Source: Paracoccaceae bacterium (GTDB lineage Bacteria > Pseudomonadota > Alphaproteobacteria > Rhodobacterales > Rhodobacteraceae). From it: a stretch of DNA of 54,158 bases. Shown here piece after piece: positions 8,471 to 13,229 of the stretch (positions are counted from its first letter, which is position 1; each line of letters begins with the position of its first letter). Position numbers and translations under genes: made by a program. The notes under the pieces were generated by a model, which worked only from the letters and a program-made list of their open reading frames with translations, did no database searches and was not told where the DNA came from. Location: assembly GCA_027351005.1 (NCBI GenBank), contig DAIEJF010000219.1, forward strand, positions 1-54,158. The letters are read 5' to 3'.

Positions 8471-8495
8471 TCCGCCCAAGCCGCGCCTGATCCCG

Positions 8496-8530
8496 CCCCC
8501 GCCGGTCCGACCGGCGGGGGTTTTCCTTTT
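8496..8530 (+). terminator. Intrinsic terminator of clpA
   Basis: CCCCCGCCGG-TCCGA-CCGGCGGGGG 10-bp stem followed by TTTTCCTTTT. Confidence 0.85.
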
Positions 8531-8596: not shown

Positions 8597-10213
8597 CTAT
8601 TTCTCGGTCAGCTTCAGCTCGATCCGCCGGTTCTGCGCCCGCGCCGCGGGGCTGTCGCCGGTGGCCACCGGCTGGAATTCGCCATAGCCGCTGGCGGCCA
8701 GCCGCGTGGGCGGGAAGCCCTGGCTGACCATGTAGCGCACGACCGACAGTGCGCGGGCCTGGCTCAGTTCCCAGTTGTCCTTGAACTGGCCGGTGCCCGA
8801 CAGCGGCGTATTGTCGGTGAAGCCGTTGACCTGCAGGATCCAGTTGATGCCCGGCGGCATCTGTGCGGCCACCCCTTGCAGGATGCTGGCCACCTTGGCG
8901 ATCTGCACCTTGCCGTCGTCCGACAGGTCGGCCGAGCCGGGCGCGAAAAGCACTTCGGACGGGAAGACGAAGCGGTCGCCCACCACCTTCACGCCGTCTT
9001 GCCCGGCAAGCACCTGGCTGACCTTGCCGAAGAACTCGCTGCGATAGGCCTCAAGCTGCTGGTTCTGCGCCTGCAGCCGCTTGCGCTCGGCCTCTTCGAG
9101 GTCGGCGCGTTTCTTCTGCTCGTCGGCAAGTTGCGCCAGCGCGGCGTTCAACTGGCTGCCAAGCGACTGGATCTGTACGTTGTTCGCCGTGTCCTTGGCG
9201 GACGAGGCATCAAGCATCCCCTGCAGGCTTGCCAACTGGCTGCGCATGGCGGCGATCTGCTGGTTCAGCAACGCCACCTGCCGCGCGCTTTCCGCGCCCT
9301 TCTGCTGGGCGTCCGTCAGCGCCTGCTGGGCGGTGGCCAGAAGGGCCGCGTTCTTCTGCGCCTCGGTCAACTGGGTCTGCGCGTCCGCCGCGGCCTGCGC
9401 CTTGGCGGTCTGCGCCGCGGCCAGCAGCGTCAGCGTGTCTTCAGCCTTCTTGCGCTGTTCCTCCAGCGCCAGCGTCATCGAAGTCAGTTCGGCCTGCGAA
9501 TCCTGCAACTTCTTGCGCAGCGCCTCGGCGGCCGCGGCATCCACAAGCTGCTGCTGTTCGGCATCCGTCAGTTTCGCCTGCGCCGCCTGAAGCGCGGTGT
9601 CCTTGTCGTTCATCTGGCGGTGCAGGTCGGCCGCCAGCGCCTCCAGCGCGTCGCGCCGCGCGGCCGCCAGCCGGGCGGCCTCGGTCTGCGCATCAATCTC
9701 GCTGCGGGCCTTGGCGATGGCAAGCTGCAGCGCATCCTGTTCCTGCTGCAGCTTGTCACGCGCCGCGGTCAGGTCGCCCACCTGCTGGCCAAGCTGGGCG
9801 ATCTGGCCCTGCGCCGCGGTCTTGTCGGCCAGAAGGCTGGCCACCTGCTGTTCGAAATCGGTGATCTTGGCCTGCGCCGCCGAGAGGTCAGAGGTTTTCT
9901 GCGCGATCTGCCCGTTCAGCGTGGCGATCAGCGCGTCCTGCTGTTTGGCCCTGGCATCCGCGTCGTTCAACTGCGCCTTCATCTTGGCCGCATCGGTCCG
10001 TGCCAGCCCCAGCGCATCGGCAAGGCTCTGCACCTGGGCGTTCAGCGCGTCAAGCTGGTTGCCCTGCACCGTGATCGTCTGGCGCAGCACGAACTGCACG
10101 ATCAGGAAGATCGTGACGACGAACATCAGCACCAGCAGAAGCGAGCTCATCGCATCGACGAAGCCCGGCCAGATCGGCGCCTCGCCCCGGCTGCCGCGGC
10201 GTGACAGGCCCAT
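8597..10213 (-). CDS. MotB-like protein: one TM helix, long coiled coil, C-terminal OmpA-like peptidoglycan-binding domain
   Basis: WPGFVDAMSSLLLVLMFVV TM with intramembrane Asp; A/Q/L heptad region; NWELSQARA...GYGEFQP...NRRIELKL. Confidence 0.88.
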   Translation of the reverse strand: MGLSRRGSRGEAPIWPGFVDAMSSLLLVLMFVVTIFLIVQFVLRQTITVQGNQLDALNAQVQSLADALGLARTDAAKMKAQLNDADARAKQQDALIATLNGQIAQKTSDLSAAQAKITDFEQQVASLLADKTAAQGQIAQLGQQVGDLTAARDKLQQEQDALQLAIAKARSEIDAQTEAARLAAARRDALEALAADLHRQMNDKDTALQAAQAKLTDAEQQQLVDAAAAEALRKKLQDSQAELTSMTLALEEQRKKAEDTLTLLAAAQTAKAQAAADAQTQLTEAQKNAALLATAQQALTDAQQKGAESARQVALLNQQIAAMRSQLASLQGMLDASSAKDTANNVQIQSLGSQLNAALAQLADEQKKRADLEEAERKRLQAQNQQLEAYRSEFFGKVSQVLAGQDGVKVVGDRFVFPSEVLFAPGSADLSDDGKVQIAKVASILQGVAAQMPPGINWILQVNGFTDNTPLSGTGQFKDNWELSQARALSVVRYMVSQGFPPTRLAASGYGEFQPVATGDSPAARAQNRRIELKLTEK

Positions 10214-10216
10214 CGC

Positions 10217-11548
10217 CTAGCCCCGCCCGATCGGCTGGCCGGCGCCGCGCGACAGTTGGCGGATCGCCGCGGTCAGCGCCGCCAGGTCGCTGCGCAGGTC
10301 GGCCATGCTTTCCTGCCGCCCGGCCGAGATCTCTTCCAGAATCCGCAGAAGCTGCACGTCGATCGAGCGCAGGCGCATCCGGCTTTCGGCGTCGACATGC
10401 TCGCCCCCGGCCCCGGCCTCGGGGGGATGGGCAGCGGCGCTGCGCTCCTGTGCCCGCGCCGCGCGGTCCTGCGCCTCGACCACCCGTTCCAGCCCCTCGG
10501 CCAGCCGGTCCTGCCGCACCAGCCCGCGTTCCATCGTCTCGATCAGCCTGTCCTGGGCAATGGCACTGCGGTCCTGCGCCTCGGCCAGGCGGGCCAGCGC
10601 GGTGCCGGTGCCAGCCACACCTTCCAGCCGCACGGCCACCCGCCCCACCGCCTCGATCAGCGCGCCCATCCGCTGTTCGATCGAGGCGCGGCTTTCCTCG
10701 GACTGGGTGAACAGGATCTGAAGGGATTCGATCTGTTCGGCCATGTGGTCAAGAACGCCGACCACCACGCCCTGGTCAAAGCCTCCATCACCCTCGGCGC
10801 TGGCAAAGCCCACGCGGGTGATCGACGACAGCCACTCTTCCAGTTCGCGGTAGAAGCGGTTCTGGCCGTGGCTGGCAAACAGTTCGATCAACCCCAGCAC
10901 AAGCGAGCCGAACAGGCCCAGGAGCGAGGACGAGAACGCCATCCCCATCCCGCCCAACTGCGATTGCAGCCCGCCCATCAGTTTCTCGAACACCTGCGTC
11001 GCCGTCTCGCCTTCCTTTGGCGCAAGCGAGCGGATGGTTTCCACCACCGCGGGCACGGTGGTGGCCAGCCCCCAGAACGTGCCCAGAAGCCCCAGGAAGA
11101 TCAGCAGGTTGGTCAGGTAGCGCGTGACATCGCGTTCCTCGTCGATCCGGGTCGCCACGGAATCGAGCATCGACGCGGTCGCGGTGCTGTTGATCTGCGA
11201 CCGTGCGCTGGAGCGCGAGCGCAAGAGGTTGGCCAACGAGACCAGAAGCTGCGGGGGGCGCACCTGATCGTGGCCGGGCACATGGGCCGCGAAATCCACG
11301 ATCCAGCGGACCGAGGTGAACAGTTGGATCACCTGCCAGAAGCTGGCAAGGACGCCGATCACGAAGACCAGGATGATGACCGTGTTAAGCCCGGGGTTCG
11401 AACGGAACACGACCTCGAACCGGCTCCAGGCGAAATAGGCGCCGATCGCGACCAGCACCAGAATGACCAGCATGGTCGTGATCTGCCGGACCGGCCGAGA
11501 AAAATTCGCTGCCGCCGCGCGCGCGGGCTTGTCTGTCAGCACGGGCAT
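10217..11548 (-). CDS. MotA/TolQ/ExbB-family proton-channel-like membrane protein with extended C-terminal tail
   Basis: Four hydrophobic segments; LIFLGLLGTFWGL and GMGMAFSSSLLGL channel helices; 3 nt upstream of the MotB-like gene. Confidence 0.85.
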   Translation of the reverse strand: MPVLTDKPARAAAANFSRPVRQITTMLVILVLVAIGAYFAWSRFEVVFRSNPGLNTVIILVFVIGVLASFWQVIQLFTSVRWIVDFAAHVPGHDQVRPPQLLVSLANLLRSRSSARSQINSTATASMLDSVATRIDEERDVTRYLTNLLIFLGLLGTFWGLATTVPAVVETIRSLAPKEGETATQVFEKLMGGLQSQLGGMGMAFSSSLLGLFGSLVLGLIELFASHGQNRFYRELEEWLSSITRVGFASAEGDGGFDQGVVVGVLDHMAEQIESLQILFTQSEESRASIEQRMGALIEAVGRVAVRLEGVAGTGTALARLAEAQDRSAIAQDRLIETMERGLVRQDRLAEGLERVVEAQDRAARAQERSAAAHPPEAGAGGEHVDAESRMRLRSIDVQLLRILEEISAGRQESMADLRSDLAALTAAIRQLSRGAGQPIGRG

Positions 11549-11603
11549 GGCCCCCCCGATGAACCGCGGGAACAATAGGCGGCAGGCGGGCGGCTGCCAA
11601 CCG

Positions 11604-12173
11604 TCATCTGGCCGTGCCGCAAGACCGTTGCATCGCTGCCGACAGGGCACGCACCCGTTCTGCAAGCCAGCTTAGGTCGGCATCGGCGATCCCGATCGCG
11701 GCAAGGTGTTCGGCCGTGTTGTACAGGTAATCCCGGTTCGGCCCCCGCCCGCCCGTGGCGGCCGCGATGATGGCGGCCTGTTCCTATGGCGGCAGGCCGC
11801 CGAAATACTGAACATGATCGGGGTCGATCACGAAGGTCAGCGCGCTGACCCCCCGCCCGTCGCGCAGCCTCACCGCCTGCCGGGTTTCCAGATAGGCCGA
11901 GGAGATCAGCTCGCGTTCGCGCAGCGCGGCCAGAGTGTCGGCCTCGGCGCCCGGTTCCACCCGGAAGGCCACGCCGTCGCAGAAGGCGCCGGGGCGGGCA
12001 TCAAGCGCCAGCACCAGCCCCGGCGCGGCCTCGGTTCCGCGATGGTGGATCGAGCGCATGCAGAACGACCGCTGCCAGCCGTCAAGCCGGGCGATGGCCT
12101 GTTCGGCCACCGGAAAGCCCGGGTGCCAGATCAGCGATCCGTAGCCGAAGACCCAGAGCGGGGTATCCTGCAT
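11604..12173 (-). pseudogene. chaC: ChaC-like gamma-glutamylcyclotransferase interrupted by an in-frame TAG at 11784-11786
   Basis: WVFGYGSLIW, RSIHHRGT, LRERELI; after the TAG the same frame continues EQAAIIAAATGGRGPNRDYLYNTAEHL to a TGA at 11604. Confidence 0.8.
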
Positions 12174-12236: not shown

Positions 12237-13229
12237 ATGCGCAAGCTCACAGGATTGGTGGTCGTGCTGTTCGTGCTGTGGGGCGGCTGGTGGGCGTTCA
12301 CCTCGCGCATGGAAACCCGTCTTGTCCGCGCGGCCTTCGCCGAGCGCAAGGCGGCGGGCTGGACCGCCGATTACAGCAGCCTGGGCGTTGCGGGATTTCC
12401 CAACCGGCTGGATCTGACGGTGAACGACATCGCGCTGGGGGCGCCGGGCACAGGCGTCATCTGGCGCGCGCCCTTCGCGCAGGTGCTGGGGCTGACCTAC
12501 AACCCCTGGCACGTCATCGCGGCCTTTCCGAACAGCCAGGAAATCGAGACCCCCGCGGGAACCTTCACGCTGGGCTCGTCGCGGATGGAGGCCAGCCTTG
12601 AAACCCGGCCTGGGCTGGACTTCACGCTGGCCAGCATCGTGGCAGTGATCGACAAGCCGGTGGTGACCGCAAGCCTTGGCTGGCAGGTCTCGGCCGATTA
12701 CGTCCGCGCCGCCACGCGGCAGGTGCCCGGCCGCGCCAGCGCGCAGGAAATCGGGGTGGAAACCGCCAATGTCGCCCCGGATGCAGCGCTGCACGCGGCC
12801 CTGGACCCGACCGGCACCCTGCCGCCCGCGCTGAGCCGGATCTATCTGGATGCCGAGGCAGGCTTCACGGCCCCGATCGACCGCCGCAGCGCCACCACCC
12901 CGCCCCTGCTGACCGATCTGGCGGTGAAGCAGGCCGATGTTCTCTGGGGGCCGATGCGGCTTTCGGCCACGGGCAAGGTGACGGTGGATGCGCCAGGCAT
13001 CCCCGCCGGGCGCATCACGCTGACCGCGTAGGGCTGGCGGCAGATGGTCCCCGTCGCCGTGGCACTGGGGTTGGTGCGGCCAGAACTGGAACAGACGGTC
13101 ACGAACATGCTGGCGGAACTGGCCAAGGGTTCGGGCAAGCCTGACACGGTGGACCTGCCGCTGGTGTTCGAGAAGGGCTGGATGAGCCTTGGCCCGCTGC
13201 CGCTGGGCCCTGCGCCGCGCCTGCGCTAG
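12237..13229 (+). pseudogene. DUF2125-like exported protein interrupted by an in-frame TAG at 13029-13031
   Basis: N-terminal TM (MRKLTGLVVVLFVLWGGWW), GFPNRLDLT; RITLTA*GWRQMV continues in frame to the typical C-terminus SLGPLPLGPAPRLR. Confidence 0.7.

Follow-up and report, generated by a model that had tools for sequence, protein, structure and literature searches.

A conserved alphaproteobacterial gene pair resembling MotAB and ZorAB, a candidate wall-anchored ion motor of housekeeping type

Ion motors with five A subunits around two B subunits (5:2 motors) serve bacteria in flagella, gliding, nutrient import, outer-membrane constriction, secretion and phage defence. MotAB, ExbBD, TolQR and ZorAB share this arrangement, which turns as ions pass. 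Here we describe a two-gene unit related to these motors, encoded in a stretch of 54,158 nucleotides from a Paracoccaceae bacterium (contig DAIEJF010000219.1 of assembly GCA_027351005.1), further called the window. Gene A codes for a channel subunit and gene B for a peptidoglycan-binding subunit. The pair is kept by most alphaproteobacterial lineages sampled and fits none of the known jobs of 5:2 motors. An earlier note, made from the letters of the window only, had read it as a housekeeping, wall-anchored, non-flagellar unit of unassigned function, and this reading held up against the distribution of the pair, a cross-table with the flagellar gene fliG and published screens. Very probably, the pair forms a non-flagellar ion-conducting complex. 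The more specific reading is given an even chance: a proton motor of housekeeping type, anchored in the wall, that senses or maintains the envelope.

The described systems that come closest each share part of their anatomy with the pair (sources marked "in part" were available as excerpts). MotAB and PomAB have the four hydrophobic segments of A and the MotB-type OmpA-like domain of B in common with it, whereas the pair lacks a plug, a large torque-generating cytoplasmic domain, a link to flagellar genes and control by CtrA. TolQR and ExbBD give the closest fold matches of the A core (Z 11.0-11.2) and share its compact cytoplasmic domain. Unlike in these systems, B carries an OmpA-like rather than an ExbD/TolR domain, A has a long tail, and no TolA- or TonB-like gene adjoins the pair in annotated loci. 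With ZorAB of Zorya (PDB 8QYD, 8VVN; PMC11946911, in part), the pair shares the A fold, the positions of the Thr/Ser ring, the OmpA-like domain and a helical A tail, besides the W-x-x-aromatic-x-D helix of ZorB. It differs from Zorya in being a core gene pair without adjoining ZorC/D/E/F/G, in the four hydrophobic segments of A, in an A model without beta-hairpin and with a tail shorter than that of E. coli ZorA, and in the long periplasmic rod of B. The channel encoded by Salmonella siiAB conducts protons, depends on an Asp and binds peptidoglycan (10.1101/641415; PMC12607715, in part). The secretion-linked relatives discussed below share a WP..VD motif with the present family. The linker of SiiA is disordered, with 40 residues, and its wall-binding motif is degenerate, whereas in this B the coiled coil is long and the motif complete; moreover, the tolC/hlyD/ABC/adhesin operon layout of SiiAB (SPI-4) is absent at this pair and was seen only in its sister group. 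In sum, the pair would work like a 5:2 motor, yet it appears to lie outside the definitions of flagellar stators, Zorya, SiiAB and Tol/Ton.

The earlier note had seen in the pair the best candidate for an undescribed system. Any novelty would indeed lie in the function, since the family as such already has a database model, PRK09039 (NF006542-NF006546), and orthologs labelled motA or motB. B passes two of the models (NF006542, 745.3 bits against a cut-off of 388; NF006543, 320.6 against 305). Other members are SMc03992/3, Atu3746/7, RL4023/4 and bll1511, and the upstream partners of the B proteins are labelled "MotA/TolQ/ExbB proton channel family", "biopolymer transporter ExbB" or "flagellar motor protein MotA". 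No functional study of the family was found in the open-access literature (subscription papers may hold data), and the available parts of PMC11369160, PMC2797634 and PMC12204202 contain nothing on the pair. What is new here is the joint retention of unlinked A and B genes, the secretion-linked sister group, the published mutant data and the rejection of four partners.

Gene A is a MotA/TolQ/ExbB-type channel fold with conserved Thr and Ser residues. As had been claimed, the motifs GLLGTFWGL (residues 153-161) and GMAFSSSLLG (202-211) belong to channel helices, and a tail of about 200 aa extends beyond the last helix in both sequence and model. In an alignment of 129 sequences, Thr157 and Ser208 are conserved at 100% and Ser207 at 91%, all within the last two membrane helices; the middle of the tail is variable. 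In ZorA, Thr147 and Ser184 form the ion filter; without these two residues or Asp26 of ZorB, Zorya does not function (PMC11946911, in part). The correspondence between A and ZorA residues was set by motif position, and that between the Asp of B and of ZorB by HMM alignment. The model of A built from the 129-sequence alignment is all helical (mean pLDDT 83.9); a poor single-sequence model (pLDDT 51.5) was set aside. Among 48,161 solved chains, the top structural matches are tied between ExbB (Z 11.2, rmsd 4.1, 197 aligned), TolQ (Z 11.0, rmsd 4.1, 189 aligned) and ZorA (Z 10.8, rmsd 3.6, 191 aligned), with MotA/PomA below them (Z 8.4-9.8); for a helical bundle, a Z of about 11 is modest, and some unrelated bundles reach Z 9-10 against A. 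Foldseek gave no match at E<=0.001, its weak rows being ExbB, TolQ and ZorA, and a profile search against the sequences of solved structures returned only coiled-coil noise. The match to PF01618 (17.3 bits) stays below the cut-off of 22.9. A complex model of four A cores and two B helices (score 0.05, mark 0.32) was used neither way.

For B, a membrane helix with an Asp placed like that of MotB and an OmpA-like domain had been described. The WPGFVDAM motif (residues 15-22) and one helix (25-43) are present, but they resemble ZorB more than MotB. The best solved matches of the N-terminal profile, though weak, are to type I ZorB (8vvn_B, E 0.012; 8qyd_F, E 0.077), and Pfam found no match to MotB_plug (PF13677) in B. 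Conservation of the Asp, on which the motor reading had been made to depend, is complete: the residue occurs in 86/86 B proteins with the helix in the same frame. These come from 94 distinct B sequences chosen by the C-terminal domain alone; in the remaining eight rows such a helix is missing, five being secreted paralogs and three having frames that are broken or gapped. The OmpA-like domain was confirmed (residues 422-529, PF00691, E 3e-17), and its nearest solved relatives are MotS, MotB and PomB.

What that description had omitted is a predicted periplasmic coiled coil of about 340 residues between helix and wall-binding domain, and this is the most distinctive feature of B. No proline occurs from residue 17 to 417, and the 3.5-residue periodicity is sharp (power 3.8, compared to at most 0.36 at seven other periods). 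If continuous, the rod would measure about 50 nm. Its length shifts in seven-residue steps, as the spacing between the Trp and GDRF equals 5 mod 7 in 61/84 proteins; counted by distinct length, this holds for 32/49, and for 24/31 of those over 230. The spacing ranges from 166 to 957 residues with a mode of 201, and at 397 it is about twice the mode here. No tandem DNA repeat was found that explains the rod in this gene. Two further observations concern B. Six loci (L110, L111, L112, L113, L114, L115) encode extra B C-terminal domains with a coiled coil but without Asp helix. Several of them have signal-peptide-like starts and no adjoining A gene, and these copies would be a derived, probably secreted wall-binding family. 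In a 1.0-Mb genome (G279, L109 5304-6261), B is split into two overlapping frames within the OmpA domain.

The suggestion that such pairs may be widespread in Alphaproteobacteria was borne out. A matches 200 of the 301 genomes of the class, so that chance can be set aside, and B occurs in 194. Both are present in 192, i.e., in 192 of the 202 genomes having either; the eight A-only genomes have weak or divergent matches or broken frames. Of the 112 distinct loci where A matches strongly, 97 have B directly downstream. In 12 genomes of 0.8-2.1 Mb, B does not follow A yet is present elsewhere, and the unlinked B copies examined keep the Asp motif. Retention of A and B even when unlinked is as expected of the members of one complex. 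The pair is mostly single copy and lies amid housekeeping genes. Outside the class, strong orthologs were found in six genomes of a phylum sample of 251, and in that search four whole families had no match to this query (0/6, 0/5, 0/4 and 0/4 genomes).

Following the database labels, the pair could be a second flagellar stator: the entries for Atu3746 and Atu3747 read motB and "flagellar motor protein MotA", respectively. The relationship of the OmpA domain to MotS/MotB/PomB and the four hydrophobic segments of A point the same way. However, these orthologs appear to be mislabelled, as the pair is independent of flagella. The gene fliG is present in 194/301 genomes of the class, and the cross-table gives 133 genomes with A and fliG, 67 with A only, 61 with fliG only and 40 with neither. 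The presence of the pair thus does not follow that of flagellar genes, nor does the pair appear to be needed for swimming in Phaeobacter (see below), as would be expected of a stator. According to a survey of these motors (PMC12505986), stators have an expanded cytoplasmic torque interface of at least four helices, a plug and flexible linker behind the B helix, and an expanded, OmpA-like peptidoglycan-binding domain. From this set, only the last is found in the pair. The survey also lists a four-helix "square" membrane fold of A for stators; here A has four hydrophobic segments, but its matches to MotA/PomA score below those to ExbB, TolQ and ZorA. The A model has one short helix (100-112) between membrane helix 2 and the long helix 121-174, and the B helix is directly followed by a proline-free heptad coil. 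In Phaeobacter inhibens, PGA1_c25180 and PGA1_c25190 were taken as the pair by gene order only (between clpA and chaC). The library holds three and two transposon mutants of them, none of which is in the non-motile table, and the log-fold changes of both genes stay within 0.1 in ctrA, cckA and chpT mutants (PMC12363192, in part). A stator identity is therefore largely refuted and deserves hardly any credence.

As for the source organism, a canonical motB lies on another contig of the same genome beside flgE/flgK-like frames, these motB-flgE-flgK-like frames being situated at a contig end (G000:C3 1-2921). Neither fliG nor flhA was found in the source assembly, which is 91% complete. Either missing contigs or a flagellar remnant would account for the gap.

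The earlier note had further assigned the ZorAB architecture to the pair. The peptidoglycan-binding B and the long A tail agree with this, but the nearest relatives found are secretion-linked and the A model contains no strand and no ZorA-type beta-hairpin. A Zorya-type anti-phage sensor with effectors encoded elsewhere would be in line with the best matches in the defence library (ZorA1, E 2e-11, for A in PADLOC; ZorB3, E 1e-26, for B), with the ZorB-type Asp helix and with the tail. Zorya A subunits nevertheless carry a cytoplasmic beta-sheet (PMC12505986, in part), and the pair is a core element, mostly single copy, amid housekeeping genes. No zorC/D, zorE or zorF/G was found in the A-B operon or near annotated core orthologs, and PADLOC returned no match at 1e-8 among the 42 other proteins of the window. 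EH_Signature and DUF3348 were not found in the 91% complete genome either; no control genome matched, which makes this negative a weak one. A role in phage defence is thus very improbable.

By sequence comparison, the nearest relatives found appear to be pairs linked to type I secretion, which come closer than Zorya. The weak A matches are of two kinds. Those of the first, Zorya III-like kind, beside DUF3348/DUF2894, score E 8e-17 to 3e-10 with the A-core profile, compared to E 7e-46 to 2e-21 for those of the second, secretion-linked kind. In a quick tree, from which neither a root nor an order of events is claimed, the Zorya III-like branch measures 4.1 and the secretion-linked ones 0.8-1.9. 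The core group has an SH-aLRT of 90 and includes three non-core rows, two of them very long-branched. The secretion-linked loci (L085, L086, L088, L147, L148, L169) adjoin tolC, ABC, hlyD and giant RTX/Ig-repeat genes, and such pairs also occur on Arcobacter and Providencia plasmids; within the class, the L085 type is rare (3/301 genomes). An enterobacterial relative of 468 aa aligns across all four A helices (HH probability 98.8%). Gene context and size suggest that these relatives may be SiiAB-like.

These relatives raise the question whether the pair assists an export machine as an accessory motor. In Salmonella SiiAB, SiiB binds the ABC protein SiiF (PMC12607715, in part). The pair would likewise touch an ABC exporter or type I secretion system whose genes lie elsewhere, and would thereby govern whether a product of the surface or envelope is released or retained. 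Besides the closeness of the secretion-linked relatives compared to Zorya, the position of an MsbA-like exporter (TIGR02204) fits, as 42 of the 67 genomes having it carry it downstream of B at a distance of up to 5 kb, in 40 cases convergently. Against this, the exporter is on the opposite strand and is unlinked in this genome. It was not found in 21/40 pair-bearing genomes and is present in 23/40 pair-less ones. Moreover, no secretion gene was found in the window (NCBIfam and PADLOC scans), and, unlike this B, those of the secretion-linked pairs have only 195-365 aa and no recognisable OmpA motif. An export role is accordingly held to be unlikely, while it is the most credible of the alternatives.

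A number of related arrangements were seen on the way. In one genome (G220, L088 6625-11121), an A-like protein of 1499 aa with a tail of about 1250 residues is followed by a B-like gene and tolC. Another genome (G258; L147 6765-9241 and L171) holds, besides the core pair, another A/B-like pair in which B precedes A; a giant frame with RTX repeats, of more than 6000 aa, lies divergent from it. Lastly, a further unnamed A/B-like family occurs in another class of the phylum (L151, L153, L154, L155, L162). Its A proteins have 330-390 aa. Its B proteins, of about 260 aa, carry the motif YE(V/I)FSD and gave no Pfam match; two of these pairs lie behind a 4Fe-4S membrane protein.

The genomic context hints, weakly, at the envelope. 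In genomes with both on one contig, tolB lies within 25 kb of the pair in 13/27, the neighbouring block being tolQRAB-pal-tilS-ftsH-glmM. The gene suhB is often upstream. In S. meliloti, where tags were assigned by gene order and the A-B order is the same, rgsF and suhB precede the pair, which thus lies two genes away from rgsF, an essential septal gene. Together, the tol, suhB and exporter context looks like an old gene block. Other weak hints are the detection of the Atu3746 protein in detergent-resistant membranes under all tested conditions (PMC8656257) and a ChvI-bound fragment that maps inside SMc03993 (PMC3687685, in part).

Such context could mean that the pair, beside Tol-Pal/Rgs, generates additional force for polar growth or for constriction of the envelope, pulling or spacing the inner membrane relative to the wall. 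The old synteny with tolQRAB-pal-ftsH and rgsF and the retention of the pair in genomes of 0.8-1.1 Mb favour this. On the other hand, SMc03993 and SMc03992 were not found in the text and seven supplementary files of a Tol-Pal/Rgs pull-down study (PMC7327166), transposon sequencing was neutral (see below), tolB is present with or without the pair, and no TolA/TonB-like gene adjoins it in annotated loci. Such a role seems quite improbable, more so than one in export.

Finally, the pair might not rotate at all, and be a wall-to-membrane strut or a gated ion leak whose motor residues are kept for assembly or ion homeostasis. The rod and wall-binding domain dominate B, the secreted paralogs at the six loci mentioned above keep both without the Asp helix, and no partner was found. 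However, the near-invariance of Asp, Thr and Ser across the class and the joint retention of A and B even when unlinked fit an active channel, and we regard a passive device as rather less probable than a second force generator.

The reading preferred here remains that of a housekeeping proton motor. By the rules of the family, five A subunits would ring two B subunits, with protons passing Asp20 of B. The B dimer would be held still by its grip on the peptidoglycan while the A ring turns round it. With no MotB-type plug, the B helix would run straight into a stiff, two-stranded coiled coil, and from this anatomy wall binding or strain at the far end of the rod would gate the channel. As in ZorA, the A tail would pass the movement on, here to a partner in the cytoplasm or inner membrane. 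This amounts to a ZorAB-like sensing logic in a housekeeping role. Because loss is neutral in laboratory media, the role would be conditional, e.g., in stress, division accuracy or surface life. A wider proposal is tentative: the family may be an ancestral alphaproteobacterial motor and a further class of 5:2 machines, in which the rod reads wall mechanics and the A tail drives a partner, SiiAB-like pairs being the closest offshoot and Zorya a more distant one.

Several points weigh against the sensor/maintainer reading. No partner, substrate or phenotype was identified. RL4023 and RL4024, whose orthology was taken from a table of PMC5929573 (in part), scored as neutral in an INSeq screen in either of its two media (PMC5118466, in part), so that the pair is, by this assignment, non-essential in Rhizobium; Atu3746/7 show near-zero changes in the supplement rows of PMC11527210 (in part). 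The tol-pal synteny is not kept at this locus, where tolQ lies on another contig, and may be without functional meaning. None of four candidate partners tracks the pair: in pair-less compared to pair-bearing genomes, lpxC was found in 36/40 and 38/40, tolB in 39/40 and 40/40, chvG in 18/40 and 18/40, and the MsbA-like exporter in 23/40 and 19/40. None of them is therefore an obligatory partner; the 40 genomes on each side were hand-picked, kin are not independent, and one pair-less genome (G040) adds a row to each count, though no claim depends on it alone. The tip of the A tail is weakly conserved (G410, R411, R419 and L425 at only 50-65%), and tail length in core orthologs is 31-226 aa (two broken-looking rows left aside), some tails thus having about 30 aa. 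The seven-residue steps of the rod would also follow from selection for coiled-coil stability alone. The periplasm is typically 15-25 nm wide. Long rods, such as that of about 50 nm predicted here, exceed this width, which argues against a simple distance ruler.

At the locus itself, both genes lie on the minus strand with a gap of 3 nt, and clpA is convergent with the pair while chaC lies upstream on the same strand, all as first described (Table 1). The statement that the window holds no flagellar, ton/tol or Zorya gene was likewise upheld (11 proteins against Pfam, 37 against NCBIfam, 42 against PADLOC), the remaining genes being housekeeping genes by Pfam and NCBIfam. The G+C content of the pair (0.675) is close to that of the window (0.684), and relatives at 70-97% identity are Rhodobacteraceae-type genomes. 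One promoter-like site was found upstream of A, compared to 0.2 expected. A TTGGC/A...CCTAT pattern recurs 5' of orthologs, being visible in 8/10 aligned rows and degenerate in two; it presumably fits the rhizobial housekeeping-promoter consensus. A ChvI box was also considered for this promoter but dropped as untestable in DNA of 68% G+C.

Table 1. Positions of gene A, gene B and their parts in the window.
Feature	Position	Strand	Remarks
Gene A	10217..11548	-	443 aa from ATG; MotA/ExbB/TolQ/ZorA-fold channel subunit with helical C-terminal tail
Conserved membrane core of A, residues 20-243	10820..11491	-	129-sequence alignment
Helical tail of A, residues 246-443, predicted cytoplasmic	10220..10813	-	Model and alignment
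Gene B	8597..10213	-	538 aa; PRK09039 family "peptidoglycan-binding protein"
WPGFVD motif and single membrane helix of B, residues 15-43	10085..10171	-	Asp20 codon at 10156-10154
Predicted periplasmic coiled-coil rod of B, residues ~45-385	9059..10081	-	Proline gap and 3.5-residue periodicity
OmpA-like peptidoglycan-binding domain of B, MotB/MotS/PomB type	8627..8950	-	Pfam match, residues 422-529
Promoter-like site TTGGCA-17 nt-TATTGT	11572..11600	-	24 nt 5' of the ATG of gene A

Some neighbours deserve a remark of their own. The chaC gene (window ~11600-12173, minus strand) has an in-frame TAG at 11784-11786, some two thirds into the gene, whereas the frames of five close relatives continue at this point; either a recent nonsense change or an assembly error explains it. 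Divergent from chaC, a DUF2125 gene (12237-13031, plus strand) is a constant neighbour in these hosts (also L034-L044, L095). In ortholog neighbourhoods, an M23 peptidase gene often lies between B and clpA. A strong intrinsic terminator-like hairpin is situated 3' of clpA (8495-8521, plus strand).

According to a recent survey, an OmpA-like domain is missing from the B subunits of non-flagellar motors (PMC12505986, in part), and the present family contradicts this. As public transposon collections already hold mutants of the pair, the question of its function is directly testable. A partner, if found, would extend the core envelope machinery recognised in rhizobia, roseobacters and endosymbionts, and would also inform the origin of SiiAB and Zorya.

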